From the NCBI GenBank assembly GCA_963663965.2, contig CAXXFK010000030.1, positions 224,001 to 288,000 on the forward strand: DNA of 64,000 nt, in the 5' to 3' direction. Shown piece after piece: positions 1 to 51,606 of the stretch (positions are counted from its first letter, which is position 1; every line of letters starts with the position of its first letter). Source of the stretch: Sedimentisphaerales bacterium (GTDB lineage: Bacteria > Planctomycetota > Phycisphaerae > Sedimentisphaerales > SM23-30). The translations under genes and the position numbers were made by a program. The notes under the pieces were generated by a model that was given only the letters and a program-made list of their open reading frames with translations, searched no databases and was not told the DNA's origin.

Positions 1-75
1 TAACGAGAGATCCCGCATGTCAACGAAAAGTTTCAAGATGATTTTACCGTGGTGGTGCTGGAGAGTGAGGCGTAG
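1..75 (+). other. Possible 3' end of a PP2C/SpoIIE-type phosphatase gene (truncated at the window edge)
   Basis: Frame 1 reads ..EKFQDDFTVVVLESEA*, resembling the C-terminal DDxT motif of PP2C. An in-frame TAA at 1-3 means an indel would be needed. Confidence 0.25.
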
Positions 76-180
76 TTTTTTGTTTTAAGTCTATGTAAAT
101 GTGGGCCACCCGAGAAAGATGGCCGAGGCCACCCGGCCGCATGTTTAATCACTGTAACATACAAATTTTGAGGTAAACCT

Positions 181-1230
181 ATGTCAATCCCGGTTCCCTT
201 CAAGCTCTCGAAATTCAATGTCATTTTTACAATTATTGTTATTGCATTCTATTTTATGCCTGCCATATTGGCCTCTCAATTGTCATCTCACATAATTGGA
301 TTAATTTGTGGACGTGTCATCGCCCTGATATTCATACCGATGCTCTTCGCCTGGCTGGTCTGGCGTATGAGAGGCCGCCAGGAAAAAGGCGGCACCGGAA
401 CTTATAATCTTGTCCTGTTTTTATGTATCATCAGCCAGATAAATCAGTGCGCCATGAACAGTCAGCGGGAGGAATTCTATAAAAATGTTATATCAGCGAA
501 GCAAGAATATCAGATTGCTCTTAAAAGCGTTGACAATGTTGCCGATGTTCAATCCGCTCACCAAAAATATGTAAATATTATCGAAAAAAACTACAAGGAA
601 TGCTCTCAATATCATGACCCTGATATGCGCGATATAGACTCTGATAAAGAAATTCTATTGGTTATGGCCGATCTGAATACTGAAGATATGATTGCTCAAG
701 TAGAATGGGTCAACGCGTATGCCGAAATTGAAGAGAACAACCTGCTGCGATACTCATTAGCGAACAACACCGAAGCGTTCGACCGGCAAAGAAAATACAT
801 TGATCGATATCTTGAAAAGACGCAGATTCTAAAAGAGCTTTTTGAGAGCAAAGTGGAGACTCTCAAAAAGAAACTGGGAAAATTGGTGGATAGTAGCAAA
901 AACGCCCAAATGATTATTGGTAATGCGTTAGAAAGCTACCGAAATCAACGACCCTTTATGGCACCTGTTTTTGACGCCCATATGGCTTATGGTGAGCATC
1001 TGGGCCAACTGCTGGACCTGTTGCAAAACAGGCGTGATGAATGGTCCGAGGGTGACAACAAGATAGTTGCTCATAACGATGATTTTCTGGAAGCTTATTC
1101 CCGGCTTTATTATCTGATCCAGCAAGATTCAGTAAAAATGACACAAGCAAACGAGCATCTATCAGCCATTGATAGCCGGACTCTGTCTTCAGACCTGTCA
1201 GTGCCCGCACCCGTTTTGCCGGGCAATTGA
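181..1230 (+). CDS. Hypothetical membrane protein (about 3 N-terminal TM segments plus a helical domain)
   Basis: 349-aa ORF with a GAGGT RBS upstream and a hydrophobic N-terminus. Confidence 0.75.
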   Translation: MSIPVPFKLSKFNVIFTIIVIAFYFMPAILASQLSSHIIGLICGRVIALIFIPMLFAWLVWRMRGRQEKGGTGTYNLVLFLCIISQINQCAMNSQREEFYKNVISAKQEYQIALKSVDNVADVQSAHQKYVNIIEKNYKECSQYHDPDMRDIDSDKEILLVMADLNTEDMIAQVEWVNAYAEIEENNLLRYSLANNTEAFDRQRKYIDRYLEKTQILKELFESKVETLKKKLGKLVDSSKNAQMIIGNALESYRNQRPFMAPVFDAHMAYGEHLGQLLDLLQNRRDEWSEGDNKIVAHNDDFLEAYSRLYYLIQQDSVKMTQANEHLSAIDSRTLSSDLSVPAPVLPGN

Positions 1231-1238
1231 ATCATCTA

Positions 1239-1267
1239 CGGCCTGACGGCCCCGGCTAGGCTGTGCG
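1239..1267 (+). repeat. Cassette-boundary motif, copy 1 (attC-like cores GCCTGAC..GCTAGGC)
   Basis: CGGCCTGACGGCCCCGGCTAG matches 5462-5482 at 20/21. CGGCTAGGCTGTGCG matches 2563-2577 at 14/15. Confidence 0.55.
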
Positions 1268-1275
1268 GGGTGGCG

Positions 1276-1530
1276 CCTTCAAGCGTAACGCAGTGGAGCT
1301 TGTGGGTGCAATAGCGCTGCGATTGGAACAGGCTGGCAATGGAAGATCGACTATGGCACTCACTGGGAAACAGGACAACGCGGCCTTGTGGAGCGGCCGG
1401 AGTTGTGGTATTATTCCAGCTATCGATTCTGGGCAGGGACAGGTGACAGCCCGGTTCCCGGTATGATTGAAAGGAGACATTTACCCGATGGCGATTGATG
1501 TGTCATGCACCCACAAGCTGCGCTTGAAGG
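1276..1530. repeat. Non-coding element with long-range terminal inverted repeats
   Basis: 1276-1285 pairs with 1521-1530 (10 bp) and 1297-1310 pairs with 1506-1519 (14 bp). Confidence 0.65.
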
Positions 1531-1636
1531 TAGAAGCTGAGACAGGTTAACGAGGCCGCTGGCTGGGTTCAAGGAACTGGCAATACAACATATTAAGTAA
1601 TCTGGTTAATATCCGTTACACAATAGGAGACTTGAC

Positions 1637-2422
1637 ATGAAAAAGTATTTAGTAGCTTTGCTGATGTTATTTGGATTATCCCATTGCACAATGGCGAGTT
1701 ATTGGAATGATGGAGGAACTCATGATGTGATAACGACGATAGATAGGAATTGTTCTATCCGTGGCGTTACGACTGTAAATTTGTATGATACAGGGATTGT
1801 CACTGGCGGATTGGGTGTATTCGATTGGGGTACAATAAATATCTATGGAGGAGTAATTTATGATGGGCTTTCAGCAGTACAGAATGGTAAGATAAATATA
1901 TATTCAGGCGTTGTTACACCTTTTTTATTCGCGTTTGATTATACTAATACCCAGATCCATGGAGGAACAATTGGAGCAATTACTTTTGAGGGAAATACAA
2001 CCTGCACAATATCGAATGCCCATGTTCAAGATGATGTGTACCTCTCTCTTTACAGCGACACGAAGGTGCACGGAGGAATATTTGATGGAGAATTTTATAT
2101 ATATGATAAGGCGTGTTGTGTATTTGAAGGAAGTGAGTTCTATATAAATAATCAGGAGGTTTATGATGGGAGCCATGCAAACGATTTTCAATTAACAGAA
2201 ACAACACTACGCCTCGATGGGATTAAATATCACTGCTGGACAGGCGCCTTGACTGGAGTTCTGGCTGATGGGAGTGCTCTTGATACAACTTTTTATCTTT
2301 ATGACTATTATGGTCATGGGTATGGCGACCTCTCTTTTTCGGTCATCCCAGAACCTGCCACCTTATCCCTGTTTGGCATTGGAATCCTAGCAGTTTTTCG
2401 TCGAAAAAATATTGGGAATTAA
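1637..2422 (+). CDS. PEP-CTERM sorting-domain protein (beta-solenoid-like, Gly-rich repeats)
   Basis: Signal peptide, AGGAG RBS, and C-terminal VIPEPATLSLFGIGILAVFRRK (PEP, TM helix, basic tail). Confidence 0.9.
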   Translation: MKKYLVALLMLFGLSHCTMASYWNDGGTHDVITTIDRNCSIRGVTTVNLYDTGIVTGGLGVFDWGTINIYGGVIYDGLSAVQNGKINIYSGVVTPFLFAFDYTNTQIHGGTIGAITFEGNTTCTISNAHVQDDVYLSLYSDTKVHGGIFDGEFYIYDKACCVFEGSEFYINNQEVYDGSHANDFQLTETTLRLDGIKYHCWTGALTGVLADGSALDTTFYLYDYYGHGYGDLSFSVIPEPATLSLFGIGILAVFRRKNIGN

Positions 2423-2562
2423 GTTATGACAAAATCGTATCTTTTATTTATATTATTTTTATTGTCCTGGATCTAATTGATTGAGCCAAGAAAATATTAG
2501 TAAAGTGATTGACCAGTATGGCTCTCCAGTTAGTCTGGTGCAGATTAACGGCTGGATGGCGA

Positions 2563-2577
2563 CGGTTAGGCTGTGCG
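2563..2577 (+). repeat. Cassette-boundary motif, copy 2 (GTTAGGC core)
   Basis: CGGTTAGGCTGTGCG, 14/15 identical to 1253-1267, just upstream of the RBS of the next gene. Confidence 0.45.
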
Positions 2578-2605
2578 TGAAAGTGATAATAGCAGGAGTT
2601 AGATC

Positions 2606-4870
2606 ATGAAAGCAAAATTAGTGGTTCTGATGTGTTTGCTGGGTTTATCATCGGTATCGGCCCGGGAGTTCCATGTCGGGGTCAATGGCAATGACCAGTG
2701 GCGCGGGTCGGAGGACAGGCCGTTGCGGACGATTTCTGCCGCGGCGCGGCTGGCCCGGCCGGGTGATGTGATTACCGTTCATGCAGGGGTCTATCGTGAA
2801 AGCGTCAATCCGCCGCGCGGCGGCGAATCGGAGTCCGGGCGGATCGTCTATCGGGCGGCTCCGGGCGAACAGGTGGTCATCAAAGGCTCCGAACCCATCC
2901 AAGGCTGGCAGCCGGTGCAAAACGATACCTGGAAAGTCACGATTCCCAATAGTTTCTTTGGCGAGTTCAATCCCTACCGGGATCTGATCCGGGGCGACTG
3001 GTTCAATGACAGGGGGCGGCGGCATCATACCGGCGCGGTGTACCTCGACAATCACTGGCTGACTGAAGCGGCGCAACTGGACGATGTCTTAAAACCCATC
3101 GGCGCTGCCGCATCATCCTACCTGGCGGGCCAAAGTCAATATCTGCTGAATGTGGCCTGGTTTTGTCCCGGTCCTGCCGCGGCAAAGGCTGCGCGCATCC
3201 CGGCGGGCAACTTTGCCGCGCAACACGGTGTCCAGACCGAACAGAATGCTGACGAAGGGCTCCTGGTCGGCTGGATCGAGCCGGGCGACTGGTGCCGATA
3301 CGATCAGGTGGATTTCGGTTCGGGAACCGACCAGATGGTCATCCGGGCTTCGTCCAGTACCGAGGGCGGACTCATCGAGCTGCGGCTGGACTCGCCGGAG
3401 GGTGAACTGCTGGGCATCTGCCCGGTTGAAAATACCGGCGGGTGGTATTCCTGGTCAACACTCAAGGTGAAGATCAAGCCGTTGAGCGGGCAGCAAACCC
3501 TTTGCATGGTATTCAAGCGCCACCGGCAACTGTCGGACGAAGCCGCGGATTTGCGTTTGTGGTTCGCGCAGGTGGATGATGCCAGCACCACCCTCTGGGC
3601 CCAGTTCCAGGCCGTCAATCCCAATAACAGCGCGGTGGAGATCAATGTCCGCCGGGCGGTGTTTTATCCGGAACAAACCGGGATGAATTATATCACGGTG
3701 CGCGGCTTCACCCTGATGCACGCCGCCACCAACTGGGCCCCGCCCACGGCCGAACAGATCGGCCTGATCGGGGTGAACTGGAGCAAAGGGTGGATTATCG
3801 AAAACAACGACATTCGCTATTCGGTCTGCACCGGCGTGACGCTGGGCAAGCACGGCGATGAATTTGACAACACCTCGGCCAATTCCGCCGAAGGCTATGT
3901 CAAGACCATCGAACGCGGCCTGGCCCGGGGCTGGTCCCAGGCGAATATCGGCGGCCACATTGTGCGTAACAACCATATTTCCCACTGCGAACAGGCCGGT
4001 ATCGTGGGCAGCCTGGGGCCGATTTTCTGTACGGTGACCGGCAACACCATCCACGATATCCATGTGCGGCAACTGTTTACCGGCGCCGAGATGGCCGGCA
4101 TCAAGTTCCACGGCGCGGTCGATACCGTCATCAGCGATAACCATATCTATCGCACCGGCCGCGGCATCTGGCTGGATTGGATGGCCCAGGGCACGCGTGT
4201 CACCCGGAATCTGCTGCACGATAACGGGCCCGGCGAGGATCTGTTTGTTGAGGTGAATCACGGGCCGTTTCTGGTGGACAACAACATCATGCTTTCACCT
4301 GTCAGCCTGTTAACCAACTCGCAGGGCGGGGCGTATGTCCACAACCTGTTTAACGGCCGGGTCCAGGTCATTGTCGGGGAAGGCCGCCTGACGCCGCATC
4401 TGGCCGAGCATGGCACGGACGTGGTCGGGCTGGCGCCGAATCCCAGCGGTGATGAACGGTATTATAATAACATCCTGGTGAACGGCGGATTGTCCAACTA
4501 TGATCCGGCGAAACTGCCGGTCTTTATGGCCGGCAATGTCTCGATCAAAGGGGCCAAACCGTGCAAATATGAAACCGGTTCGCTGGTCCAACCGCAATTC
4601 AGTCCCGGCATCAAGCTGGTTGAACAGGCAGATGGCCTCTTTTTACAGATGACTTTGGATAAGAAATGGTCCGCGAATCAGACTCGAAAGCTGGTCACCA
4701 CGCAACTATTGGGCAAGGCCAAAACACCCGATCTGCCCTATGTGCAGCCCGATGGCTCACCCTACCGCATCGATACCGATTATTTCGGCCGGAAGCGAGA
4801 CCCCGCCAATCCGTTCCCGGGCCCATTCGAAAATCCCGGCCAGGGCGAGCAGGTCTTGAAAGTATGGTAG
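2606..4870 (+). CDS. Secreted GH120-like beta-xylosidase (parallel beta-helix) with an internal CBM6-like module
   Basis: Signal peptide. PGDVITVHAGVYRESVNPPRGG, WAPPTAEQIG, GIWLDWMAQG and LFVEVNHGP are typical of GH120. The insert GWIEPGDW..VDFGSG..IELRLDSPEG..TGGW is typical of CBM6. Confidence 0.8.
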   Translation: MKAKLVVLMCLLGLSSVSAREFHVGVNGNDQWRGSEDRPLRTISAAARLARPGDVITVHAGVYRESVNPPRGGESESGRIVYRAAPGEQVVIKGSEPIQGWQPVQNDTWKVTIPNSFFGEFNPYRDLIRGDWFNDRGRRHHTGAVYLDNHWLTEAAQLDDVLKPIGAAASSYLAGQSQYLLNVAWFCPGPAAAKAARIPAGNFAAQHGVQTEQNADEGLLVGWIEPGDWCRYDQVDFGSGTDQMVIRASSSTEGGLIELRLDSPEGELLGICPVENTGGWYSWSTLKVKIKPLSGQQTLCMVFKRHRQLSDEAADLRLWFAQVDDASTTLWAQFQAVNPNNSAVEINVRRAVFYPEQTGMNYITVRGFTLMHAATNWAPPTAEQIGLIGVNWSKGWIIENNDIRYSVCTGVTLGKHGDEFDNTSANSAEGYVKTIERGLARGWSQANIGGHIVRNNHISHCEQAGIVGSLGPIFCTVTGNTIHDIHVRQLFTGAEMAGIKFHGAVDTVISDNHIYRTGRGIWLDWMAQGTRVTRNLLHDNGPGEDLFVEVNHGPFLVDNNIMLSPVSLLTNSQGGAYVHNLFNGRVQVIVGEGRLTPHLAEHGTDVVGLAPNPSGDERYYNNILVNGGLSNYDPAKLPVFMAGNVSIKGAKPCKYETGSLVQPQFSPGIKLVEQADGLFLQMTLDKKWSANQTRKLVTTQLLGKAKTPDLPYVQPDGSPYRIDTDYFGRKRDPANPFPGPFENPGQGEQVLKVW

Positions 4871-5088
4871 CATGGCTGATTACTTGAAAGGGTAAAAGCC
4901 GATATGAGACCAGGCGTCATTCAACGATTTGACATGCCTGAAACAATATTTTTGGATGTGATAAAAATGGGCATTGAAGACCAGCAATTGGACAAGATAG
5001 GCTGTCTGAAAATTATGTTGATGATGATGTTGAATATTTTGATACAAACAGGTATCGAACTAAACAGGCTCAAAAAACAGTAAGGAGA

Positions 5089-5433
5089 TTGTCCGTGTTC
5101 AGAGAATCCCAATGTTGCGAATGTTCCATGCGTTTTATCAACCTCGCCGGACATAAAGGAATGTCAATTGTAATTAAGAATATTAATGGTAAATATTTAC
5201 CTTGTTTACAAATGAGATCATTAGATATTGACGAAGAAAATCATCTTAGCCAATTACAAAAGACATCATTAATTCAAAATAGTGTTACGGGGCCTTTTAT
5301 CAGAGTAGCTGAACAAATTGCGATCCATTTTTGTCCATTTTGTGGCCGAAATATTGCCAAATGGTTATCGAAACACAAAAATATTGCTATAGAATTGGCT
5401 AAAAAACATGAGTGTTTCATAATGGGCAAATAG
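5089..5433 (+). CDS. Small hypothetical protein with CxxC and CPFCG (putative Zn-binding)
   Basis: AT-rich ORF with an AAGGAG RBS (true start possibly the GTG at 5095). Motifs CCEC and IHFCPFCG. Confidence 0.6.
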   Translation: MSVFRESQCCECSMRFINLAGHKGMSIVIKNINGKYLPCLQMRSLDIDEENHLSQLQKTSLIQNSVTGPFIRVAEQIAIHFCPFCGRNIAKWLSKHKNIAIELAKKHECFIMGK

Positions 5434-5461
5434 TGTTGATGGATATATTGAAATTTTCCGG

Positions 5462-5482
5462 CGGCCTGACGGTCCCGGCTAG
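5462..5482 (+). repeat. Cassette-boundary motif, copy 3
   Basis: CGGCCTGACGGTCCCGGCTAG, 28 nt after the stop of 5089-5433. Confidence 0.55.
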
Positions 5483-5575
5483 AGACTTTCAGCCCGCCTG
5501 AAGCGGATCTTCGACCCGGCTGGCTTCAGTTGTGTGATATTTTGAGTGGCTATTGAATTAAAATAGGGGATTTTT

Positions 5576-6100
5576 ATGAAGGAAAGAATCAATAAGCTCT
5601 ATTCCATGGTCCATTCCCAGACGGCCCGGTGGTGTGTGTTATGTGTGGGCTTGTGTTATGCCGGGTATCGACATCCAATTGATACCGATGATTTATGGTT
5701 TTTGAGCGGGTTAACGTTGGCGGTGGTTCTGGTTTGTGTCTTTTTAGTTCACAGCCGCTACTTTTATCGCCAACTGCTGGGGCTGGGTGTTATCGTGGCC
5801 GGATTTTGGATTCTCTCGGCGTCGACGATGGTTTCGGTGGAGGTGGTTAACGAGACGGGTAAGGAGCTGGAACTCTATCTGATGCGGCTGGGCCAATCCC
5901 GAACACGGCATTATGCGTTACCTGCCCAGGCAGATATTTCGATCCCGCTGGGAAACAGTGAATCCTCGGATCGGCTCAAACCCGGCAAGCGCTACTTCCT
6001 GCTGGCGCTCGATGCGGATGAGAATCCCTGTCTCAGCCAGATCGTCACTGACGCGATACTGGAGGAACCGGTGGTGATTAGAGATAATAGGCAAGAATGA
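5576..6100 (+). CDS. Hypothetical membrane protein
   Basis: 174-aa ORF with about 3 hydrophobic segments. Confidence 0.65.
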   Translation: MKERINKLYSMVHSQTARWCVLCVGLCYAGYRHPIDTDDLWFLSGLTLAVVLVCVFLVHSRYFYRQLLGLGVIVAGFWILSASTMVSVEVVNETGKELELYLMRLGQSRTRHYALPAQADISIPLGNSESSDRLKPGKRYFLLALDADENPCLSQIVTDAILEEPVVIRDNRQE

Positions 6101-6130
6101 AACGGATGGGCGATTGGAGAAGTGTCCTTA

Positions 6131-9100
6131 TCAGGTCAGCATGGCTTCCACCTGATTGGGCATACGGTTGTACAAGTCGATGATATCCTTGTCAGTCATT
6201 CCTTTGCAATTGATAACCTGTTTGGCGATGTTATAAATTATTGCCTTGACTTTATTATAGTTAGTAATATCCATTCGAGTCCAGGCCGGGTCATAGATCT
6301 CTTTTATCTGATTCACTTTCACTTTTTTGCCCAGGTGCCAGGCGTAATAATTATTCTTATCGTCATAAAACATCGATCCAACCGGTAAGCCAATACCATC
6401 GGCGAAACGGATATAATCTTCTTCATCACTTAACAGGGTCTTTAAGATGGCCAGACCCAGGTCTTTGCTGACCGAACCATTTAACACGCCGATATGCCAG
6501 TCGCCTTTGCAGCCTTTTCCAGGTAATGGACAAACCTTAAGCTTTCGAGATAACTCCGGGGTCTTGGAGATAATATCGCGAAGTTGTGAGTACCAATAGA
6601 TGTAGATGTCGGTTTTTATTTCATGTTGGGTGTATGGTTGCGGATTAGTGATATTATCGATATAGCCAATCCGCTCCATAACGCGACAAAAACAGAAAAA
6701 CTCTTTGTCGTGTTCACTGATTTTTTCTCTCAGGATTTTTTCATTCATTTTTTCCAGATTCTTACATGCTTTGACAACATCCAGTAATAAACACGACAAC
6801 GTTTCCGGAGCAACAGGATCAACCCGGATTACGATATTTCTATCATCTAAAAGGTTAAGCATGGTCTCCCATGATAAGAAATTATTTGACTCAAGGTTAA
6901 GTGTATGAGCGATCATGAGTACATTTTTGTAGTATGGATACAGTCCCCGCCTTATAATCTTCTGGTCATAATCATTCAAGTCCTTGTGGTTAAGAAAGAT
7001 CGTATTCTCATTGTGTTCGTTATCCGTGGCTTGATTACTGGTTGCGTATTTATACTTGATAAAATGGGATGCTTTTTCATTTTCTCCAACATAGAATTCA
7101 TCGACTGAACACAAAACGGTGTTTTCCAGCGGAGCATTTTTCTGCAAGATACTCAATGATTCGTGTTGAATACCCGAATCTCTGGGACCAAATTCCACCA
7201 GGTTTACATTAGGGATAATATGCTCAAAAAGATTGTCGGCCTGCTTGAGTGATCGAATAGGATCATTCGATATTCTGGATTTGCCGAATACGGATTTCAT
7301 AATAGTACTCAGGCGCTGATTGTATCTGGCATGGTTGTCGTTTTCTTTAAATAAAAATGCTGCAATCTCCGGGCGATGAATGGTGTTGCTGGAAAAGCCG
7401 ACCAGGCCATTGAGGTATTCCGTATTCAGAGTGAAAAAATGTTTTGAGTCTTGTTTATCTAATGAGAAAACTTCTTGTGCTATGGTTGGTTTTTGTTGAG
7501 AATCCTCAGGCGCATTATCGGGGTTAATGTCATGTATTTGGATGACAGCCGGAGTTGTTTCAATATCTTCATGCTGATCGCTGCGCATGCCGTCGCCTTG
7601 CACAATAATGTGCTTTTTCCCAAATACATCAATAAACCGGCATTTGATGACGGCGTCCGCGATGGAGACCGCCCGGTTAACCATGTCATTGCCGCTCTCG
7701 AACTCGCTGCGCGTGCCAATGATCACGGTGTTAATCCCGTGATTTCTCATGATCTGCGCGAACGCCGGAATAAATATCTCGCCGGAGGTTTTGCTCTTCT
7801 TCAAAAATGGATAAGCGCCGCCAATTTCACTGACATCATCCAGGATGACGCGCTTGACCTTTTTTCCTTCTGGAAACCGGATAATAATAGCCCTGATCAC
7901 ATTGATCAATTCTTCCGGCAATAAGGCGCCATTGCCAAAATCGATTTCGATTAAGGAGGAGTCAATATTTTTTTCTTCTGAAATAAAATTCCATTTGGTA
8001 ATCAAGGCTTTACTTCGGGTGACAATATTTTGCCACTCATGATTATTCGCCGCTATTTCTGGGAATCGCTCTTGATATAATTCTTCGGAGAGTATCAGGC
8101 TGTCGGGCCCTTCCAGCATCCGACTTTTGTGTAAACGTATCAGGAGCCCGGTTTCTCCACGGTGCAGGCCGTCCATTAGATAACACATGCCGATATTGGA
8201 TTTGAACGCGCCCCGATCGCCTTCAATCACGACCACGCTCCCGCGATTGAGATTTTTTCTGATAATCAACTGGCTGAATGTTTTCATCCCCCATGTCCAG
8301 CCGGTATCGTTTAATGGGTCGGGCTTATCGTATATTTTCTTTTCGGTCTGTTGAACAATATAGTGTAACGATGGATAGATAACCAGGCCATTACTGACAT
8401 GGGCTAGAATATTATTACTACCTTGATATATATGCGGGACTTTTCTGGATTCTTCCGGCTGTGAGCCGGTAGAATTTCTGGTGTTGGTATCCGTGGATGG
8501 ATCTGATGCCTCGTGCGGATATGAGAAGGTCTTCATCGGATGTTTGCCTTCTACATGTTTGGTATAGCGGGATTTATCAATCGAAAAATATTTCATTTTG
8601 TAGTTGTTGTCTTCTTCGATGCTCAACGAGATTTCGATGTCGGTAATGGTTGAATCATAGGGCACCAGGTTAGCCAGGGAAGATTCCACGACAAAGATGC
8701 CAATCGTTTTGTAACGTTTAAATAAATAGAACAGTTGATACAGCTGTTCTCGGGTGAGAGGATTATCGGAAAACATATTCAGACTATCGATGACGACCAG
8801 GGGAAACAACTGGCAATTCAGTTCCCAGGGCTCGATTATGGTTCCGTTCGAATTGATCGGCAGGCCGTTTTCATTGACAAATCGTGACTCAATATTGGCA
8901 GATTTAAAAGAGGTACTGCCCTTCAGAACACTGCCGGCCTCAAGTAAGAATTCCAATTGACGATAACGTTTCCAGAAGATATCGTCATTGCCCTCGTTTT
9001 GAATATATCGGGGCGATAACGAGGGCAATAGCACGCAGGCGTCTATCAGATCGTTTTGAGTGTTATGATTTTCAGGGCATTGGGTCATGGTTTTGTCGAG

Positions 9101-9571
9101 AAACGGGCAATTTTGAGGTTGGGTCAGGATACTTCTTAAAAAATTGGCATAATGTTGGGGACTTTCCAGCTGATCGACTGAATGTAAATGTTGCATCACC
9201 TTCATATATTGACGCCAGCCGTATTGTCCGGCTTTGGTTAACACTTCATGATGTGTGTTTTCCAGTGAAACATAAGCGGTTACGGCGCAATTACCTAATT
9301 TAACCGCCGCGGTCACCGCAAGTTGCAACGCCAGGGTTGACTTCCCGGCGGCCGGCGGCCCTTTAATAATGATATTGCCGGTTCCGGGATCATCATCGGC
9401 AGGAACGATCAGGGCGGGAATTTCATCTCTCTCTTTTTCCGGGATATCATCGCCTTCTTGCTGGATGGGTAACAATTGACAACTTTGATTCATTAAATGA
9501 TCGAATGGGAATCCCAGGCGAATTTTTACTTTTTTATTATTTTCACGATTTTTAGAATTTATTTTATTCAT
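6131..9571 (-). CDS. Tandem KaiC/RecA-family ATPase fused to a C-terminal solute-binding-protein-like domain
   Basis: Domain 1: Walker A GPPAAGKST, Walker B VVIDSL, STITD, KSR. Domain 2: GDRGAFKS and VILDD. The C-terminus has PYY..SWE..GDWHIGVLNGS..GIGLPV, like sugar SBPs. The ATG at 9571 overlaps the upstream stop. Confidence 0.75.
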   Translation of the reverse strand: MNKINSKNRENNKKVKIRLGFPFDHLMNQSCQLLPIQQEGDDIPEKERDEIPALIVPADDDPGTGNIIIKGPPAAGKSTLALQLAVTAAVKLGNCAVTAYVSLENTHHEVLTKAGQYGWRQYMKVMQHLHSVDQLESPQHYANFLRSILTQPQNCPFLDKTMTQCPENHNTQNDLIDACVLLPSLSPRYIQNEGNDDIFWKRYRQLEFLLEAGSVLKGSTSFKSANIESRFVNENGLPINSNGTIIEPWELNCQLFPLVVIDSLNMFSDNPLTREQLYQLFYLFKRYKTIGIFVVESSLANLVPYDSTITDIEISLSIEEDNNYKMKYFSIDKSRYTKHVEGKHPMKTFSYPHEASDPSTDTNTRNSTGSQPEESRKVPHIYQGSNNILAHVSNGLVIYPSLHYIVQQTEKKIYDKPDPLNDTGWTWGMKTFSQLIIRKNLNRGSVVVIEGDRGAFKSNIGMCYLMDGLHRGETGLLIRLHKSRMLEGPDSLILSEELYQERFPEIAANNHEWQNIVTRSKALITKWNFISEEKNIDSSLIEIDFGNGALLPEELINVIRAIIIRFPEGKKVKRVILDDVSEIGGAYPFLKKSKTSGEIFIPAFAQIMRNHGINTVIIGTRSEFESGNDMVNRAVSIADAVIKCRFIDVFGKKHIIVQGDGMRSDQHEDIETTPAVIQIHDINPDNAPEDSQQKPTIAQEVFSLDKQDSKHFFTLNTEYLNGLVGFSSNTIHRPEIAAFLFKENDNHARYNQRLSTIMKSVFGKSRISNDPIRSLKQADNLFEHIIPNVNLVEFGPRDSGIQHESLSILQKNAPLENTVLCSVDEFYVGENEKASHFIKYKYATSNQATDNEHNENTIFLNHKDLNDYDQKIIRRGLYPYYKNVLMIAHTLNLESNNFLSWETMLNLLDDRNIVIRVDPVAPETLSCLLLDVVKACKNLEKMNEKILREKISEHDKEFFCFCRVMERIGYIDNITNPQPYTQHEIKTDIYIYWYSQLRDIISKTPELSRKLKVCPLPGKGCKGDWHIGVLNGSVSKDLGLAILKTLLSDEEDYIRFADGIGLPVGSMFYDDKNNYYAWHLGKKVKVNQIKEIYDPAWTRMDITNYNKVKAIIYNIAKQVINCKGMTDKDIIDLYNRMPNQVEAMLT

Positions 9572-11072
9572 CAGATGGCAATCCAGTACTCTCAATGATA
9601 CCTGTTAATTTTTCAACATGCATAAAATCACATTTGGATTCTTGGCTGTCGACCGACCAGGACCAGGTATCGATGCCATCCCAGATCGGATTCAAGGTAA
9701 ATTCTTTATGTCTATTGTTCCAGTTCCTGGCAATCACCGCGATTCGTTTCACTGCGACTTTTACCCGAAAGACATCGATATCACCAATCATGCCCGCCAA
9801 CTCTTCATAGGTAAAGCGAGACATGCCAAAAACCTGGGTGCTTAACCGCCACATTCCTTCAGCTACCTCGCATAAATAGTGATGATGAAAGATCGGTTCG
9901 AAGCTTTCCCGGGCATCCCGATTGTATAGCGTTTCATTAATATCCAATAACCAGGCCGAGATATAGATGCCGAATTTGGCTAAATCTCTTCGAATGTCAT
10001 ATAACGTTTTGCCGCCCTTACCTATACGGCTGTCAATTTCCTTAAACAGCAATCCCAGAAGTAAGATGTTAATCGCGTCATAATTATTAAAGGGATAGTA
10101 GTTGCCATTTTTTTTTCTGAATTCACGTTTATTCTTTACAGGTAACACCGCTAATTTTAAAAAACCGATCTTAGCCCATAAGGCGTCATATTTCTCTTTC
10201 CCGTTACATTGGAAAAACGGTTTGACCGCCTTTTGAATATTACGGTCGAAATCATAGTCAAGTTCGCTCCTGAATTCCTTAGCATAATCCGGATTCCTGT
10301 TGAACGCTTTCTTAAATTGAGGCTTTAAGTCGTCCCATGGCTCATAACCCTTGTCCTGCTGGTCTTGATTAAGGATGATAACATAAGGAATTGGTTTGGT
10401 AGAATTTTTTTCAATATCTCTGGTTGAAAAAAGGGTTCTTAATAACTTTTTCATTGGATCAAAATAAACCCCTTTCACGCAGCGCCGGATAGCGGCGACG
10501 GGTCCATCCTCAGGCAGGTAATCGGGTATGACCCTTTGAAAGGTATTGTCCATGGTATCCGCCAGACAAAGAAGGGCGGCGATTAACAATTCCCTGATTT
10601 CTCCGTAGGGGGCGATGACCGTCGTGTATAATTCCTGTCTTGCCATGTTCCGATTATCATCGGATTCCGGGTCGTGATAATAACAGATTCTCCCCAGGCT
10701 GTCGGCGATTTCGGCATTGGGAATTCCCAGGTGAGCATACATTCGCTTGATAATATTTTTGCTGTTCGCGGCGTGTTCATTGCCGTTTTGGATGCGCCCA
10801 ATATCGTGTAACAAAACTGACAGTAACAACAAATAGATCTCGAATGGCTTTAAGAAATATTCAATGCCGTGATACTGTTCCATTGCCTCACAGATTTGAT
10901 CGAGATAGCCCTCGATATTTCTGAGATGCGGATAAGAATTATACGAACCGCTTTTGGTATTCAATGCGCTGAGCCAGTCATTTGTGGCGATTTTCCAGGC
11001 GGTTTGCAACCCTTCATAAAGATCCGGACAACTGTTTTTCAACTGTCTTGCTAAATACCCATCTGGCAGCAT
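9564..11072 (-). CDS. HD-superfamily phosphohydrolase (HD-CE-like) with a possible C-terminal HTH
   Basis: Metal-binding pattern PHLRNI..VLLHDIGR..EHAANS..YYHD..LADTMD. The C-terminal FTYEELAGMIG..RVKVAVKR is HTH-like. Confidence 0.75.
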   Translation of the reverse strand: MLPDGYLARQLKNSCPDLYEGLQTAWKIATNDWLSALNTKSGSYNSYPHLRNIEGYLDQICEAMEQYHGIEYFLKPFEIYLLLLSVLLHDIGRIQNGNEHAANSKNIIKRMYAHLGIPNAEIADSLGRICYYHDPESDDNRNMARQELYTTVIAPYGEIRELLIAALLCLADTMDNTFQRVIPDYLPEDGPVAAIRRCVKGVYFDPMKKLLRTLFSTRDIEKNSTKPIPYVIILNQDQQDKGYEPWDDLKPQFKKAFNRNPDYAKEFRSELDYDFDRNIQKAVKPFFQCNGKEKYDALWAKIGFLKLAVLPVKNKREFRKKNGNYYPFNNYDAINILLLGLLFKEIDSRIGKGGKTLYDIRRDLAKFGIYISAWLLDINETLYNRDARESFEPIFHHHYLCEVAEGMWRLSTQVFGMSRFTYEELAGMIGDIDVFRVKVAVKRIAVIARNWNNRHKEFTLNPIWDGIDTWSWSVDSQESKCDFMHVEKLTGIIESTGLPSDE

Positions 11073-26596: not shown

Positions 26597-26628
26597 AAGA
26601 GATGGGCATTTCGCTCATCTCTTTTTTT
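26597..26628 (+). terminator. Intrinsic terminator between convergent genes
   Basis: AAGAGATGGGC..GCTCATCTCTT followed by a T-run. Confidence 0.7.
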
Positions 26629-27652
26629 ACGCATGGATCGGAGCGGTGATATTCTGGCGGGATTCTTCCGAGTGATCCAACGAGTCGAGGAACGCCGTTA
26701 CCAACCGTGGATCCATGGTGGTGCCGGCTTCCTTGATCATGATTTGTTTGGCTTCATGGTTTGACATGGAGTCACGATAGGGACGTTTGGTCGTTAAGGC
26801 ATCCCAGACATCGGCAATTTGAATGATCCTGGCCAGCAGAGGAGATTCTTCACCTTGCAGCCGGTCCGGATAGCCGCTGCCGTCATAATGTTCATGATGG
26901 TATTTAACCGCCAGCAGAATCCCTTCCAGCGCATCAACCGGTTCCAGCACTTTATATCCTTTTAGGGGGTGGGTTTTGATTTGCTCGAATTCCCAGTCGG
27001 TCAGTTTACCTTTTTTTAACAGGATTGCGTCAGGGATCCCGATTTTGCCAATATCATGAACCCGGCCGGCCCACTGGAGCAATTGCATCTCTAAAGGATC
27101 AAGCTGTATGAATTCACCCAGTTTACAGGCATAATACGCGACTCGTTCGGAGTGTCCGCTGGTATATTCATCCTTAGCTTCCATGGCCCGTACCAGCGAT
27201 GAAATGGTTTGCCGGTAAGCGGTTTCGAGTTTCTGTGAAACTTCTTCAGCCGATTTCAGGCGGAGAAAGACTTTGATTTTGGCCATCAGTTCATCGCCGT
27301 GAAACGGTTTGGTAATATAGTCTTCCGCCCCGGAATGATATCCGGCCAGTCGTTCAATCGTGGTTTTCTGGGATGAGATAAAGATGATTTTGGAATGGGG
27401 CAATTTACCGTTAATGCGAAGCTGTTTGCAGACTTCATACCCATCGATACCGGGCAGCACGATATCCAGCAGGATGATATCCGGATTAAAATTATCGGCC
27501 AGTTCCAACGCCTCTTCGCCCGTCGAGCAAATTTCCAGAATGTAATTGAGATGCAGCAATTCCGCCAGATAGATCTGGTTGGAGCGGCTGTCCTCGACAA
27601 TCAGGATTTTGGGTTTTGTCGAAGGTTGGGATGCTAACATTTGATTGATCAT
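26627..27652 (-). CDS. Response regulator with an HD-GYP phosphodiesterase domain
   Basis: REC (IVEDS, LLDIVLPG, KPF) plus GHSERV, HDIGK, HHEHYDGSGYP, ADVWDA. Confidence 0.93.
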   Translation of the reverse strand: MINQMLASQPSTKPKILIVEDSRSNQIYLAELLHLNYILEICSTGEEALELADNFNPDIILLDIVLPGIDGYEVCKQLRINGKLPHSKIIFISSQKTTIERLAGYHSGAEDYITKPFHGDELMAKIKVFLRLKSAEEVSQKLETAYRQTISSLVRAMEAKDEYTSGHSERVAYYACKLGEFIQLDPLEMQLLQWAGRVHDIGKIGIPDAILLKKGKLTDWEFEQIKTHPLKGYKVLEPVDALEGILLAVKYHHEHYDGSGYPDRLQGEESPLLARIIQIADVWDALTTKRPYRDSMSNHEAKQIMIKEAGTTMDPRLVTAFLDSLDHSEESRQNITAPIHA

Positions 27653-27728
27653 AAGTCAGTCATTTTCTTCCGAAAATAATTCCTTGAAAACCGTAAGCCA
27701 ACCGAACCGTCTGTGGTCCTGGTTTCTG

Positions 27729-28820
27729 TCAGCTTTTCACCGGTGCAAGATCCTGGTAACATAATTTAACAATGGCCGGCGCTATTTCATTGAGTGGCAC
27801 GATTTTGTCAACGGCGCCTTTTTTGACGGCTTCTTTGGGCATGCCATACACCACACAGGATTTTTCATCCTGGGCGATGGTGAACGCGCCCGCCTCTTTC
27901 ATTTCGAGCATGCCCTGGGCGCCATCATCCCCCATCCCGGTCATAATCACTCCCACCGCATTGGCACCCAGATAATGGGCCGCCGAGCGAAACAGCACGT
28001 CAACCGAAGGACGGTGCCGCGTCACCAGCGGTCCTTCGCGAACTTCGACGAAATAACGGGCTCCGCTGCGTTTGATCAGCGTGTGAAAATTCCCCGGCGC
28101 GATTAACGCGCGCCCCTGGATAACACTATCATTATTCTGGGCTTCTTTGACGGTAATCTGGCAGCTTTCATTAAGCCGCTGGGCAAATGAAGCGGTGAAC
28201 TTTTCCGGCATGTGCTGCACAATGACAATACCCGGCGCATCCGGGGGAAGCGCTTCGAGAAAATCTTTCAAGGCTTCCGTGCCTCCTGTCGAGGCTCCGA
28301 CTACGACGACTTTTTCCGTTGTTTTGAGCATGGCCCTGGAAGTGGGGCGCGCGATCACGGCATCGGCCGTCAGCTTTTTCTGGACCGGCCGTGAAGCCCG
28401 CGCGATTGGACGCACTTTGGCCTGGGCGGCGGCTTTGACGGTATCGCAGATGAGGATGCGCGATTCTTCGAGAAATTTTTTGACGCCCATTTTCGGTTTG
28501 GTGATGATTTCGACCGCGCCGAACTCCATGGCCTTGAAGGTGGTTTCGCAATTCGATTCGGTCAGGCTCGAACACATGACGACCGGCACCGGATGCTGGC
28601 TCATCAGCTTTTGCAGGAAGGTGATGCCATCCATGCGCGGCATTTCAACATCCAGGGTAATGACATCCGGCTTATCTTTGCGTAATTTTTCCGCGGCGAT
28701 AAAGGGATCCGGGGCCGAGGCGATTACTTCAATATTCGGATCGGAATTGAGAATGTCGGTCAAAGCCTGACGCACAACGGCAGAATCATCAACGACTAAT
28801 ACTTTGATGGTGTTATTCAT
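27729..28820 (-). CDS. cheB: Chemotaxis methylesterase
   Basis: REC plus [29 protein letters not shown]. Confidence 0.97.
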
Positions 28821-28828
28821 GGCTATTT

Positions 28829-29713
28829 TCAAATTCCTGTTTTTCTGAAGATGGTTGGAACAATACGTTCCAGGTCAACGTCGATCCCGCTTAATGTTTC
28901 AGAATGCCCCACGAATAAATAACCTCCCGGTTTGAGGTAGTGATATAATTTTTTGATCACTTTGCTTTTGGTGACATAGTCAAAGTAGATAATCACATTC
29001 CGGCAAAAGATCGCATCCATTTTCATGCCCAGATTATAATCGGGATCCATGAAATTCAGCCGGCCGAACGTGATTTTTTTACGTAATTCCGGGACCACGC
29101 GATAGTGACCCAGCTGGTGCCCTTTGCCCGCCATGAGGTATTTTTTTCGAAAAGGTTTCGGAATCGGGGCAATCAGCGCCTCCGGATAGACGGCCTGCCT
29201 GGCTTTTTTCAGGACTTTTATGGCGATATCGGTTGCCAGAATGGAATAATCGCCGGGTCGCTGGGAGAAAAAGTCCTCCAGGACCATCGCCAGGGTGTAG
29301 GGCTCTTCACCGGTCGAACACCCGGCGCTCCAGAACTGCAAATGCCCGTCTTTCTGGAAATGTCTGGTTTTAACGATATCAGGCAGCGCTTTCTGCGTCA
29401 GAAACGCAAAGTGATTGTCCTCACGGAAGAAATCCGTTTTGTTGGTGGTCACGGCATCGACCAGCGAGACCAATTCTCTAATGCGCAAATTGGCGTCATC
29501 CAGATAGCGCAGATAATCCTGAAACGACTGCAATCCCAGGGCTTTCAGGCGTTTGCCCAGGCGCGCTGACAGCATGGATCGTTTTTCGGGTTTTAAATGG
29601 ATACCACATTCATCGTAGATTAAGTCGATAAAAGTTGACAATTCACTATCGGTCAATAAGGGTATCAGATTGTCATAGGATGAATTACGCTGGATATTAT
29701 CAGGCATAAGCAC
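28829..29713 (-). CDS. cheR: Chemotaxis methyltransferase
   Basis: [37 protein letters not shown]. Confidence 0.97.
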
Positions 29714-29725
29714 TTTCCTGGAAAA

Positions 29726-30265
29726 TCAAGTTTCAAGTTCCGCTTCATCCGCCTCATCATCAGTCGGAAGCAGCGATGCGTTGGCGCCGATATCTTTTAA
29801 TGCAGACAGTTCTTCGGTGGACAATACCCGCTCGACATCGAGAATAATAATAAACAAATCATCGCGTTTGCCCATGCCTTTGATGAATTCGGTTTTCAGC
29901 CGGGCGCCAATTCGCGGCGGCGGTTCAATCTGACTGTCGTCGATTTCGAGCACTTCCTGTACCGAGTCCGCCAGGGCGCCGATCTGGATCAATTCGCCGT
30001 CCATTTCCACTTCGGTAATCACAATGCAGGTGTCCACGGTGCGTTCCCCGCTTTTCATGCCCAGAATCAGGCGCAGATCAATCACCGGCACGACATTGCC
30101 GCGCAGATTAATGACACCCAGCATGAAAGGAGGAGTGCGTGGAATCCGGGTGATCGTGGTAAAATCCAGCACTTCGCGCACATGTGAGATTTCCAGGGCG
30201 AAATCCTCCTGTGCCAGCGAAAAAGTCAGGTACTGATTCATTTCTATAGCTTGATCCGTTTGCAT
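29726..30265 (-). CDS. cheW: Chemotaxis coupling protein
   Basis: QYLTF, GVINLRGNVVPVIDLR. Confidence 0.96.
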   Translation of the reverse strand: MQTDQAIEMNQYLTFSLAQEDFALEISHVREVLDFTTITRIPRTPPFMLGVINLRGNVVPVIDLRLILGMKSGERTVDTCIVITEVEMDGELIQIGALADSVQEVLEIDDSQIEPPPRIGARLKTEFIKGMGKRDDLFIIILDVERVLSTEELSALKDIGANASLLPTDDEADEAELET

Positions 30266-30288
30266 ACGATCTATCTCCTAAATTTGGA

Positions 30289-32973
30289 TTAATTGCGTTG
30301 AAAATCTTTGTCATCAATATCGTTGTCATCATCCAGATTCAAGTCGATGCCGGTATCAGGCCGCCCGGTCGCCAAAACAGGGATTTCCCGTTTGCGAGCG
30401 AATGAACCGGGTTCTGATTCCGCATCATCCTCTGCAACTGTTTGCCGGGAAAATCTGGAATCGGATTTTAACTGATCCGGCTGGTCGCTCAGTTTAAAGA
30501 AGGTGGTGACATTCAACAACTGATCGGCCTGGGCGGAGAATTCCTGGCTGGCAGAGGCGAGTTGCTCCGTCGAGGAACTGTTCTGTTGAACGACCTGATC
30601 CAGTTGGTGGATAGCCTGGGTGATCTGGTCGATCCCGGAAGCTTGTTCGCTGCTGGCGGCGTTGATTTCCTGAACCAGTTGAGCGGTCTTTTCGATACCG
30701 GGCACGATTTCATCCAGTAATTTACCGGCCTGCTCGGCAATCTCGACGCTATTGGTGGATAACGTGCTGATTTCCTGGGCGGCATTCTGACTGCGTTCGG
30801 CCAGTTTGCGTACTTCAGAGGCAACCACCGCGAAACCTTTGCCATGTTCGCCGGCCCGGGCCGCTTCAATGGCCGCGTTCAGCGCCAGCATATTGGTCTG
30901 GCGGGCGATTTCTTCGATAATATTGATCTTCTCGGCGATACTATTCATGGCTTTGACGGTTTCGGCCACCGATTCGCCGCCCATCTGGGCTTCGTTGGCG
31001 GCCTTTTCGGCAATGGCTGCGGTTTGCTGGGCGTTATCGGCGTTTTGACGGATGGTACTGCTCATTTCTTCCATCGAGCTGGAGATTTCTTCAATACTCG
31101 CCGCCTGTTCCGAGGCCCCCTGGGCCATCTGCTGAGTGGAGGAACTGATCTGTTCGCTGCCACTGGCGATCTGATTGGCCGCCGTTTGAACGTTGCGGGC
31201 AAAATCAGACAGTCTGTCGACCATGACAGAAATGGATTCCATCAATCGGTCATTGTCGGAACGTTTTTCCACAGTTTGATCGAGATCGCCATCGGCAATC
31301 TCTTTGGTTAAGGTGGCGATCTGATCGGTGGATTCAATGAGGCGATTGAGACTGGTCTTGATACGATTGAAATCGCCCTGATATTCTTCGACAATCAGAT
31401 CGGGTGATTCACCAATGGAGATCCGATCCAGATAACTGGATGTCACTTCGATCGGCTTGACAAACGATTCAATCAGTTGATTGATGCCCTGGATCAACTG
31501 GGCCCAGCCGCCGCCATAGCGATCGGCGTCGCCCCGTTGAGACAACTGGCCATTGCGGGCGGCATCCGTCAGGGTTTGGATTTCGTTAACAATCTGATCA
31601 ATGGTTTCGGCCATGCTGACCAATGCTTTGCCCAGTGTGTCGCGATCGGACAGGATACGCGGCCGGGCGGTCAGATCGCCACCGGCAAAGCGGCTGGCGC
31701 ATTCGGCGGTTTCCTTCAAATTGCCCGCCATTTGACCCACGGATTGCATGAGCTGGCCGATTTCATCGTCGCGTTGTTCGCCATTCTGAACCTCCAGATC
31801 ACCGCGGGCCAGGTTTTGAACCACGCCGACCAGATGCTGGATTGGTTGGACTATGCCTTTGGCGACCTGGAAAGCGGCGATTAAGGCCACGACCAGAATA
31901 CCGGCGGCAATGGCGATCGTTACCTTAATAATGTTGCTCAGACTGGCCAGCAGCCGGTCGGTTTCGTCACTGGCGGTATTGGTTTTCTGTTGGATGGTCT
32001 CAGTCTGCGCGGTGATACGGGCTTCCAGCATTTCGGTCATGCTGTTGATGGTATCGCGCATCGCGGAGAATTCCTGTTCCGTGCGTTTAAGATTAATTTG
32101 CCGGTTGAGATGGCGGTTGATATTATTCGCCGTTATTTCGATGACTTTGGCGCCATGTGCGGCCCAGGTTTGATATTCCTTGTCAAAGGCCGCTTTCAGC
32201 TCGAGCGCCGGGCCGGTCAGGCCTTTGGCGCCATCCGTGACCCGTTGCAAAGTTTGTCCGGTATTTTCCTGATAATCGGCCCGCAGACTTTCCAGGGCTT
32301 TCATATCGGCGGCTTCCATGATCTGCAGTTGAGCCAGGTAAGCCTGATAGGCGTCCCGGTCGGCGTTGAGCAGCAACGCGTACTGTTCGGCCACCTGTTT
32401 GGCCGAATTCTCATCCTTGGCCGGCCCCTCTTCGTAAAAGACCTCCATCTGATCGATCAGATCCCGCATCTTATCGAACACGGCAACGGATTGACGCAGT
32501 TCCTGATCACGCAGGGCGTATTCTTCCGCCAGAGCCCGGGTGTCTTTGCAGACATCCTGACAGGTCGCCTTCCAGGCGGTGAATTGCCCGGTAAAGGTCT
32601 GATAGACCGTTTTTAATTCGGCATCGTAGACCGCCGATGCCAGGCCCGCGCGCTCTTCCACCTGATTGGTGTTTTCATCGATCGATTTCTGATGTTCAAT
32701 GATTTCTTCATTGTTTTTCGACGTGATCGATAACAATAACGCTTCATTCGCCTGATAGGCGTCCCGGTCGGCATTGAGCAGTTTTTCGATGCTGGCGGAA
32801 TACGAATTCATTTGCGCCATATCCTCAGAGATAATGGGCAGTAAGGTTTGTTGCGTCGTTTTGCGCACCGTCTGATTGACTTGCATCAGGAAAAAGGTGT
32901 TGATCACGGTAAAAATGATCAATCCAATTAATGGAATGCCTGCCACCAGATTAACTTTGCCCTTGATCTTCAT
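30289..32973 (-). CDS. Methyl-accepting chemotaxis protein (duplicated helical sensor, poly-HAMP)
   Basis: 2 TM segments, [11 protein letters not shown] twice, [30 protein letters not shown]. Confidence 0.95.
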
Positions 32974-33018
32974 AATGTCTCTTTCTTAATAAAAATAAAT
33001 TCTCAGTGATTCGAATGA

Positions 33019-34776: not shown

Positions 34777-34812
34777 TTTCTGTTATATTCCAGGTCGAAA
34801 CATTACGATTGT

Positions 34813-37227: not shown

Positions 37228-37263
37228 GGTTACTCTCTCAATCAAAATTAATAATTAGATGGT

Positions 37264-48639: not shown

Positions 48640-48715
48640 GACTTTCTCCTGAAAGAAAGGATCTGGTTAAATTCGAATGGTTTATTTTTATGCGGGGAAC
48701 AAACTCGACAAATAC

Positions 48716-49687: not shown

Positions 49688-49884
49688 AAGTGTTCCTTTA
49701 CTGTTGATAGTTAGGGCGGTTATTCTCGGATCAGAATGGTAAGGGAAACAAACGGAAACAGGATTATGTAGGGTTAAAACTGAAACGTTCAGGAATACCT
49801 GTGATAATTTTTAATGGATCGGCTCAAAGGGTGGATGACATCATCAGTTGCGGTCCATCCTGATAAAAATCTTTCAACCGGTTC

Positions 49885-51534: not shown

Positions 51535-51606
51535 GCGGGTGTAGCTCAGTGGTAGAGCGTCACGTTGCCAACGTGAATGTCGTGAGTTCGAGCCTCATCA
51601 CCCGCT
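51535..51606 (+). tRNA. tRNA-Gly(GCC), CCA not encoded
   Basis: Acceptor stem GCGGGTG/CACCCGC, D-arm AGCTCAGTGGTAGAGC, anticodon stem TCACG/CGTGA with loop TTGCCAA, T-loop GTTCGAG. Confidence 0.95.

Follow-up and report, generated by a model that had tools for sequence, protein, structure and literature searches.

What can be the function of a soluble bacterial protein in which two KaiC-like ATPase domains are followed by the fold of a sugar solute-binding protein (SBP), and what does the phosphohydrolase encoded by the overlapping upstream gene contribute to it? The question was raised by a pair of minus-strand open reading frames (ORFs), 11072..9564 (gene 1, 502 aa) and 9571..6131 (gene 2, 1146 aa), located in a 64,000-nucleotide stretch of contig CAXXFK010000030.1 from a Sedimentisphaerales bacterium; the whole stretch is referred to here as the window. 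The analysis described below leads us to think it on balance probable that this two-gene module is a KaiC switch, gated by a ligand and in control of an exchangeable enzyme that destroys nucleotides, and has a role in biological conflict.

Both genes are real. An artefactual or chance origin was rejected because the family includes 111 full-length proteins (1007-1632 aa) among 164 pooled matches, which were collected by a word search (34 proteins) and from a representative library (150 listed), and because a contig from run X1 covers the whole stretch with no differing letters in the module. The X1 contig is perhaps the source of the window and so is not independent; run X2 covers part of the stretch. 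No RNA data set was listed as carrying the stretch, a result with no bearing on its expression. The two ORFs and their 8-nt overlap were found as a first-pass annotation of the window had described them. The length of 1146 aa for gene 2 was counted from an ATG, and an in-frame TTG at 9595 would extend the protein to 1154 aa.

The gene 1 product

The protein encoded by gene 1 matched the Pfam family HD-CE (PF24391) at E 1.2e-14, with 55.1 bits against a cut-off of 27; CE stands for "conflict effector". The complete HD metal site recognized in the first-pass annotation (H49, H89-D90, H100, H133, and D172) was unchanged in 26 of 26 homologous rows, including those of fused and distant proteins, and arginines R160, R180, and R196 of the same domain were invariant in the same rows. 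This degree of conservation suggests that the gene 1 product is likely an active metal-dependent phosphohydrolase. Its structure model had a mean predicted local distance difference test (pLDDT) value of 77, with residues 225-313 below 50, and includes a low-confidence variable insert near residues 216-335 that measures 79-329 aa in full-length two-gene relatives. The model produced no Foldseek match at E<=0.001, the best being exopolyphosphatases at 1.6e-3. When the HD region was compared in a wider structure search, the top fold was the C-terminal half of GppA/PPX (Z 12.1, root-mean-square deviation [rmsd] 3.4 over 186), and Rel/SpoT and HD-GYP proteins were found among the lower matches.

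What had been annotated as a possible helix-turn-helix was identified as a winged helix-turn-helix (wHTH). Residues 392-500 of the model matched 8s0f_8 (Z 8.5, rmsd 2.4 over 88), ScpB (Z 7.8), and CAP (Z 7.4); these Z values are middling, and the order of helices and strands in the model agrees with that of a winged helix. The region had no Pfam match and no usable Atlas match.

The KaiC-like ATPase domains of gene 2

The gene 2 protein matched the KaiC-type family PF06745 at E 3.8e-21 (76 bits against a cut-off of 26.6), as did all 33 of the 33 aligned family members, and the family profile reached solved KaiC at E 3e-28. The two RecA/KaiC domains are present as annotated, one with a canonical Walker A motif, GPPAAGKST (domain I), and the other with an atypical one, GDRGAFKS (domain II). 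Conservation was assessed over 124-155 rows, with the equivalence of residues in the two domains read from the alignment. In domain I the Walker A lysine K77 (100%), the catalytic glutamate E104 (99%), the Walker B aspartate D262 (99%), and the finger residues K333 (100%) and R335 (99%) are kept. Domain II retains K457 (98%), within a G-x-R-G-T-F-K loop, and the Walker B acids, and has lost the first catalytic glutamate and the K-x-R finger. The retention of catalytic residues in one domain and the degeneration of the other suggest that ATP is probably hydrolyzed by domain I, with domain II as a coupler. From the finger motif we infer that the KaiC-like protein would assemble as a hexameric ring. 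Some family members have inserts of 300-500 aa in their KaiC domains, and the core of these domains is fixed.

Residues S307-T308-I-T-D311 in domain I of the window protein aligned to S-T-I-T-D in the second domain (CII) of the solved KaiC 8zn5, a motif that we take to be the phosphosite of the clock. The S-T motif was present in 53 of 137 rows, and most of the others had E-Y, D-Y, or E-F, resembling the first KaiC domain. In a tree of 121 proteins for which only residues 440-1146 were used, the 48 S-T proteins all fell into a single clade with no exception (local support 0.993), a distribution that points to one gain of the motif, fully kept; phosphorylation at this position is putative. Domain II lacks a phosphoacceptor S-T, whereas clock KaiC has it in its intact second domain. 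A clock role was rejected because the protein falls far below the cut-off of the KaiC equivalog model NF006799 (21.8 bits against 408), its domain II is degenerate, and no KaiB was found in the genome. The last point extends an observation that the first-pass annotation had made for the window: KaiB (PF07689) was not found in the whole genome (G000, 94.6% complete), and KaiA was not searched.

The cytoplasmic sugar-binding fold

The first-pass annotation had assigned about 350 aa at the C-terminus to an SBP-like domain; the fold was corroborated and the length was corrected to about 410 aa (residues 733-1146). The domain was modeled by itself from an alignment of 100 of the 147 candidate rows, and the resulting model, with a pLDDT of 88 and a predicted template modeling (pTM) score of 0.89, had at least 500 Foldseek matches to sugar-binding proteins at E<=0.001. 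The best structure match was MalE3 (6dtq; VIA Z 27.8, rmsd 3.6 over 353 residues), and the dinucleotide-binding SBP 7c0f was also among the fold matches (Z 23.1). At the profile level the domain matched MalE3 at E 5e-6, and its Atlas score against the SBP_bac_8/1 clusters was 0.96. Neither protein of the module has a membrane segment by hydropathy, in agreement with the annotated lack of a signal peptide or transmembrane region in gene 2: the best 19-residue values were 1.40 and 1.57, and values above 1.8 were found in 4 of 163 family proteins. No cognate permease or ATP-binding cassette (ABC) ATPase was found among the neighbors scanned in the window and the other loci.

The identity of the domain to solved SBPs is 8-14%, the copy in the window reached no Pfam SBP model at E<=1, and the family member P0003 barely reached the SBP_bac_8 cut-off. 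A phmmer search with the single gene 2 protein found no solved relative, and a search with the SBP part alone returned one chance match. The low identity and the poor Pfam matches would fit a fold that has lost its small-molecule binding and acts as a scaffold for proteins, for example for an invader protein or for ring assembly. We consider such a loss of binding very improbable, since conservation reaches 90% or more at about 40 positions of the domain over some 150 rows, as would suit a fixed small ligand. The near-invariant residues are D824-E-F, N883, E923-T, W993-Y, G1023-D-W, E1051, R1055, and R1099.

Pairing, fusion, and fission in the family

The conserved pairing anticipated in the first-pass annotation was observed. 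An HD-wHTH gene lies directly upstream of the KaiC gene in 10 of 10 close-family loci that have upstream DNA (the window, L001, L002, L037, L039, L040, L041, L063, L066, and L073), a count in which L063 was located through its HD gene, L002 stops before the SBP, and L066 and L073 carry the SBP part on another contig of the same genome. Three more loci (L003, L038, and L065) start inside the gene and so were left out of the count. In the eight loci inspected, the HD and KaiC genes overlap or lie within about 25 nt of each other.

The two proteins also occur as single polypeptides. HD-KaiC fusions were found in P0122, P0161, its 2345-aa cluster mate P0191, and the SBP-less L048. P0191 has the order HD-wHTH-KaiC-KaiC-SBP and an HD insert of several hundred residues. 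In P0145 the wHTH part alone is fused, behind an ABC fragment, and this protein may be an assembly chimera. Division between the two ATPase domains was found as well: domains I and II are encoded by separate genes in L001, with an 8-nt start/stop overlap, and in L063, and 8 of the 18 representatives that consist of domain II and the SBP only begin with Met at about the point of fission. Four representatives with domain I only were rejected as evidence of fission because their sequences stop within the linker motif, probably as a result of truncation.

An interaction between the partners was modeled with the HD protein and residues 1-415 of the KaiC protein. The predicted complex had a score of 0.51, against 0.00 for the best control, which lends weak support to an association. 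The mark used for this score is reached by 116 of 157 solved pairs and 2 of 215 mismatched pairs; scores of 0.60 or under include only 18 of the 157 solved pairs and both of the mismatches that pass. Agreement between runs was at least 0% of contacts and the pLDDT of the partner was at least 67.

Other architectures were noted. In P0139 tetratricopeptide (TPR) repeats are added after the SBP, and in L041 (4718-9373, plus strand) a cut-short SBP reads in frame into a CDP-alcohol phosphatidyltransferase domain, for which a chimeric assembly or a rearrangement is possible. L003 includes a second, divergent KaiC-KaiC-SBP gene (2539-6420, minus strand, 1294 aa) that is tail to tail with the family gene and has an IS66 transposase fragment upstream. 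The Armatimonadota record L004 (3911-6442, plus strand) encodes a canonical double KaiC, both of whose domains are intact by profile, in fusion with a canonical SBP_bac_8 domain. The L004 fusion could be aligned to the family over its full length (hhalign probability 99.8) and is possibly its starting form. A small ORF that precedes this gene was rejected as the counterpart of the HD gene because it is unrelated to the HD protein.

Loss of the sugar-binding fold and replacement of the enzyme

The HD enzyme and the double KaiC were also found without an SBP, as two genes in L042 and as a fusion in L048, and four more SBP-less double-KaiC proteins appear complete (P0165, P0168, P0171, and P0173). 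Furthermore, in a Bacillota record (L031, 8760-11803, plus strand; genome G808) a same-clade double KaiC without an SBP follows a SIR2 gene at a distance of 8 nt. The SIR2 protein matched PF13289 at E 2.9e-14 and had weak ThsA and PDC-S25 matches. Its neighbor carries the derived motifs of the family and matched the profile at E 2e-164 when the alignment included L031 and at E 2e-44 when it did not. No member of the HD family of this module was found in G808. The SIR2-KaiC form, a candidate system in its own right, was present in 0 of 398 other genomes of the class of G808 (2 more were not scored).

The persistence of HD and KaiC without the SBP and the ability of SIR2 to take the place of HD argue that the constant part, or core, would be an enzyme plus KaiC, with the SBP as an added, optional sensor or input. 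These variants bear directly on a proposal of the first-pass annotation, according to which the HD enzyme makes or removes a ligand that is read by the SBP. In its fullest form, the HD enzyme would be both sensor and signal maker, and its product would bind the SBP and gate the ATPase, which would be the output. CBASS and Thoeris are established cases in which an enzyme makes a ligand; in the module, the HD site is intact, the SBP has many near-invariant polar and aromatic residues, and a dinucleotide-binding SBP is among the fold matches. Nevertheless, enzyme and KaiC persist in L042 and L048 with no SBP to receive a product, the four other SBP-less double-KaiC proteins look complete, and there is no conserved third effector gene downstream, so that the ATPase would be left without an evident output. 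The proposal is less supported after these findings, and we regard it as improbable. Loss of the SBP and the SIR2 swap favor the enzyme as an exchangeable output, which is more likely than a role as ligand maker.

Distribution and gene neighborhoods

The module is rare, conserved, and sporadic across phyla. No orthologue was found in any of 60 relatives, where the best match (E 4e-8) covered the HD core only. The module was present in 2 of 400 genomes of the class and 1 of 400 of the phylum, and in none of the 398 other genomes scored in the class of G808 or of 350 further genomes from the phylum of G811. The names of family records include Spirochaetales, Bacteroidetes, Myxococcales, and Anaerolineales, in addition to the Bacillota of the SIR2 form. 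No neighbor gene is common to the module loci, and their flanks share nothing.

Genes of the defense type were found next to three loci: PDC-S01 in L001, a methyltransferase in L037, and HEC-01B and a DrmC-like gene in L042. The last locus (1-5414) is a small defense-type cluster in which a HEC-01B-like gene, a DrmC-like gene on the opposite strand, HD-CE, and the SBP-less double KaiC are followed by an infB-like gene. Genes related to sugars also occur near three loci, namely the window (GH120), L001 (GH3), and L040 (an isomerase and an oxidoreductase downstream). In L039 (4294-6393, plus strand) a 700-aa gene of the ADP-ribosylglycohydrolase family precedes the HD gene by about 150 nt, in the same orientation.

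Relation to known systems

By profile the module belongs to PF06745 and PF24391, and it is not a clock KaiC, a component of an ABC importer, or a PADLOC system. As in KaiC and other PF06745 proteins, two RecA-type domains are in tandem, and domain I keeps both Walker motifs (A and B), the catalytic glutamate, and the K-x-R finger; in the clade of the window protein it also has the motif that aligns to CII of 8zn5. The module differs from clock KaiC, besides the low equivalog score and a genome in which no KaiB was found, in that the intact domain and the S-T motif are in first position and domain II is degenerate, in that domains I and II can be separate genes, and in that an SBP is carried and the partner is an HD enzyme. 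Gene 1 shares with HD-CE proteins the profile score above the cut-off and the full metal site, and it adds the long variable insert, the wHTH, and a KaiC-SBP partner. The C-terminus of gene 2 has the whole-domain fold of the SBPs of ABC importers (MalE, TMBP, and SmoF), and differs from them in having no export signal, in being fused to a cytoplasmic ATPase, and in having no permease among the neighbors scanned. The C-terminal half of PPX/GppA, the best fold match of the HD region, has an HD site that in PPX is held to be non-catalytic, whereas the site in gene 1 is complete and the N-terminal catalytic domains of the sugar-kinase type are missing.

Similarities to defense systems lie in the organization. 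Sir2-HerA is a two-gene defense system formed by an NTPase and an effector, in which HerA is a RecA-like ring. Like the ParA-effector (APE) systems, the module may have a constant NTPase with an exchangeable enzyme slot, as judged from the single SIR2 swap in an SBP-less relative. It differs from Sir2-HerA and APE in the nature of the NTPase, a tandem of the KaiC type that carries a small-molecule-binding fold, and in having no matching PADLOC model. In the ParA-based APE systems the HD phosphoesterase is one variable effector, according to bioRxiv 10.64898/2026.10.19.760177, and the terms "KaiC" and "solute" do not appear in its main text. Defense by ligand-gated nucleotide depletion is treated in bioRxiv 10.64898/2026.01.15.699771, and PMC6393860 and PMC13712802 also entered the comparison. 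The full-text literature covered has no description of an HD-KaiC-SBP pairing, a coverage that does not extend to Nicastro 2023 and Makarova 2017 and their supplements, the likeliest places for a prior listing. The module is apparently undescribed, and its novelty is provisional. Three elements of the first-pass annotation have then stood: the SBP fold, the co-occurrence of the two genes, and the absence, from PADLOC and from the literature covered, of any described system that matches.

Surroundings of the module

The coordinates of the features are listed in Table 1. The module is divergent from thiS-thiG-dinG and convergent with unrelated plus-strand genes of mixed guanine plus cytosine (GC) content. 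The first-pass annotation had called the two genes AT-rich, which is correct with respect to the flanks (42.7-42.8% GC against 55-60% in thiG, dinG, and the GH120 gene) and a mild effect with respect to the genome (48.6%), where this modest dip places them in about the lowest 6% of 1716 long open frames; their GC at third codon positions is 0.48-0.49, against a median of 0.56 for the same frames. A link to the thiamine genes was rejected because thiG is present in 20 of 24 family relatives that have no module. No thi gene turned up among the neighbors scanned at other module loci, and the adjacency of thiS-thiG is incidental.

Table 1. Positions of the module, its domains, and the adjacent plus-strand genes in the window
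Feature	Positions	Strand	Remarks
Gene 1, 502 aa: HD-CE phosphohydrolase with C-terminal winged helix	9564..11072	-	
HD domain with alpha/beta extension, about residues 1-390	9903..11072	-	Metal ligands and R160, R180, R196 invariant; fold GppA/PPX
Winged helix-turn-helix domain, residues 392-500	9573..9899	-	Structure-model match
Start/stop overlap ATGAATAA, 8 nt	9564..9571	-	Consistent with translational coupling
Gene 2, 1146 aa: two KaiC-like domains, the second degenerate, and a sugar-binding-protein fold in the cytoplasm	6131..9571	-	
KaiC-like domain I, residues 60-348	8528..9394	-	Walker A K77, catalytic E104, Walker B D262, K333-S-R335 finger
KaiC-like domain II, residues 440-680	7532..8254	-	Walker A variant G-x-R-G-T-F-K
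Class II sugar solute-binding-protein fold, residues 733-1146	6134..7375	-	Structure-model match; no signal peptide or membrane segment
Unrelated genes: 349-aa protein of no clear family; PEP-CTERM protein; GH120/CBM6 beta-helix protein; two small proteins of no clear family	181-6100	+	

An Rfam scan of the window found only tRNA-Gly at 51535 and no RNA tied to the module. Counts of promoters (20 against 13.1 +/- 3.8) and terminators (8 against 6.6 +/- 2.8) were near the level of shuffled sequence, and the repeats in the window are short two-copy families. An element of about 47 nt at 5471-5517 recurs on other contigs from the same sample. Elsewhere in the window there are a minus-strand chemotaxis cluster (26627-39378) with CheA, three methyl-accepting chemotaxis proteins, CheR, CheB, and a receiver-HD domain protein, and a region (47218-51606) with the large and small subunits of a NiFe hydrogenase, ApbE, and the tRNA-Gly (51535-51606).

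Proposed mechanism and meaning

We propose that the KaiC-like protein would form a double ring, with ATP hydrolysis in domain I and a coupling, nucleotide-binding role for domain II. In the cytoplasm, the SBP would close on a small polar ligand (a sugar, a sugar phosphate, or a nucleotide fragment) that signals stress or infection, and would thereby switch the ring. The ring would hold the HD-wHTH protein and then release or activate it, and the HD enzyme would destroy a nucleotide pool or signal, with arrest of the cell or the invader.

Several observations weigh against this proposal. PADLOC-DB 2.0.0 had no match for the HD protein and only a 33-residue P-loop match to mad8 (E 5e-4) for the KaiC protein, and the module was not found in the viral contigs (searched with one pattern) or plasmids searched. 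Enrichment in defense islands, a check suggested in the first-pass annotation, was not significant: PADLOC matches at E<=1e-10 within 3 kb were present at 3 of 13 module loci and 1 of 25 canonical KaiC loci (Fisher p 0.11); with SBP-bearing loci only, the counts were 2 of 11 and 1 of 25 (p 0.22). The control is rough, as ORFs were picked mechanically and real genes may be missed in high-GC control loci. The module's own neighbors in the window are thiS-thiG-dinG and a glycoside hydrolase; the housekeeping dinG matches the type IV DinG model and was left out of the count. In genome G173, which is 91% complete, the HD half lies at a contig end and there is no family KaiC, and the distant KaiC-KaiC-SBP genes (the second copy in L003, and L004) have no HD gene upstream. 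The SIR2 swap was seen at one locus only, in an SBP-less relative. Finally, the strong conservation of the SBP and enzyme cores is as compatible with a fixed metabolite as with an arms race.

A metabolic or second-messenger switch was also considered. The SBP would sense a sugar or sugar phosphate inside the cell, and the KaiC ring would tune the HD hydrolase and the DNA-binding wHTH; the substrate could be (p)ppGpp, a cyclic dinucleotide, or a polyphosphate-linked signal, and autophosphorylation is possible in the S-T clade. In its favor, the best folds of the SBP domain are sugar SBPs, GppA/PPX is the nearest fold to the HD half, with Rel/SpoT and HD-GYP lower in the ranking, a canonical KaiC-KaiC-SBP fusion exists that aligns end to end with the family, sugar genes are near three loci, and in one clade S-T is kept at the KaiC phosphosite position in 48 of 48 members. 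A function of this kind fits less well with a module that is very rare and patchy across phyla, has no neighbor common to its loci and no permease gene among the neighbors scanned, and can have SIR2 in its enzyme slot; we regard it as possible and as less probable than a role in conflict. The ligand-gated control of a nucleotide-destroying enzyme in conflict is the explanation that we prefer. A more specific version is put forward tentatively, as possible: a new class of bacterial immune or stress switch made from a rewired KaiC double ring, with an internalized SBP as sensor, the S-T motif, gained separately by domain I in one clade, as a possible timer or threshold, and an exchangeable HD or SIR2 output.

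If the module is defensive, KaiC-type ATPases would join the NTPases that gate bacterial immune effectors, the sugar-binding protein of a transporter would have been reused as an intracellular danger sensor, and its ligand would be a new signal of infection or stress. If it is metabolic, it would be a rare case of a bacterial KaiC in which the input domain is built in and the output enzyme is defined, and a non-clock role of KaiC would become testable. Either way, this is a soluble system of two genes that can be expressed and assayed.

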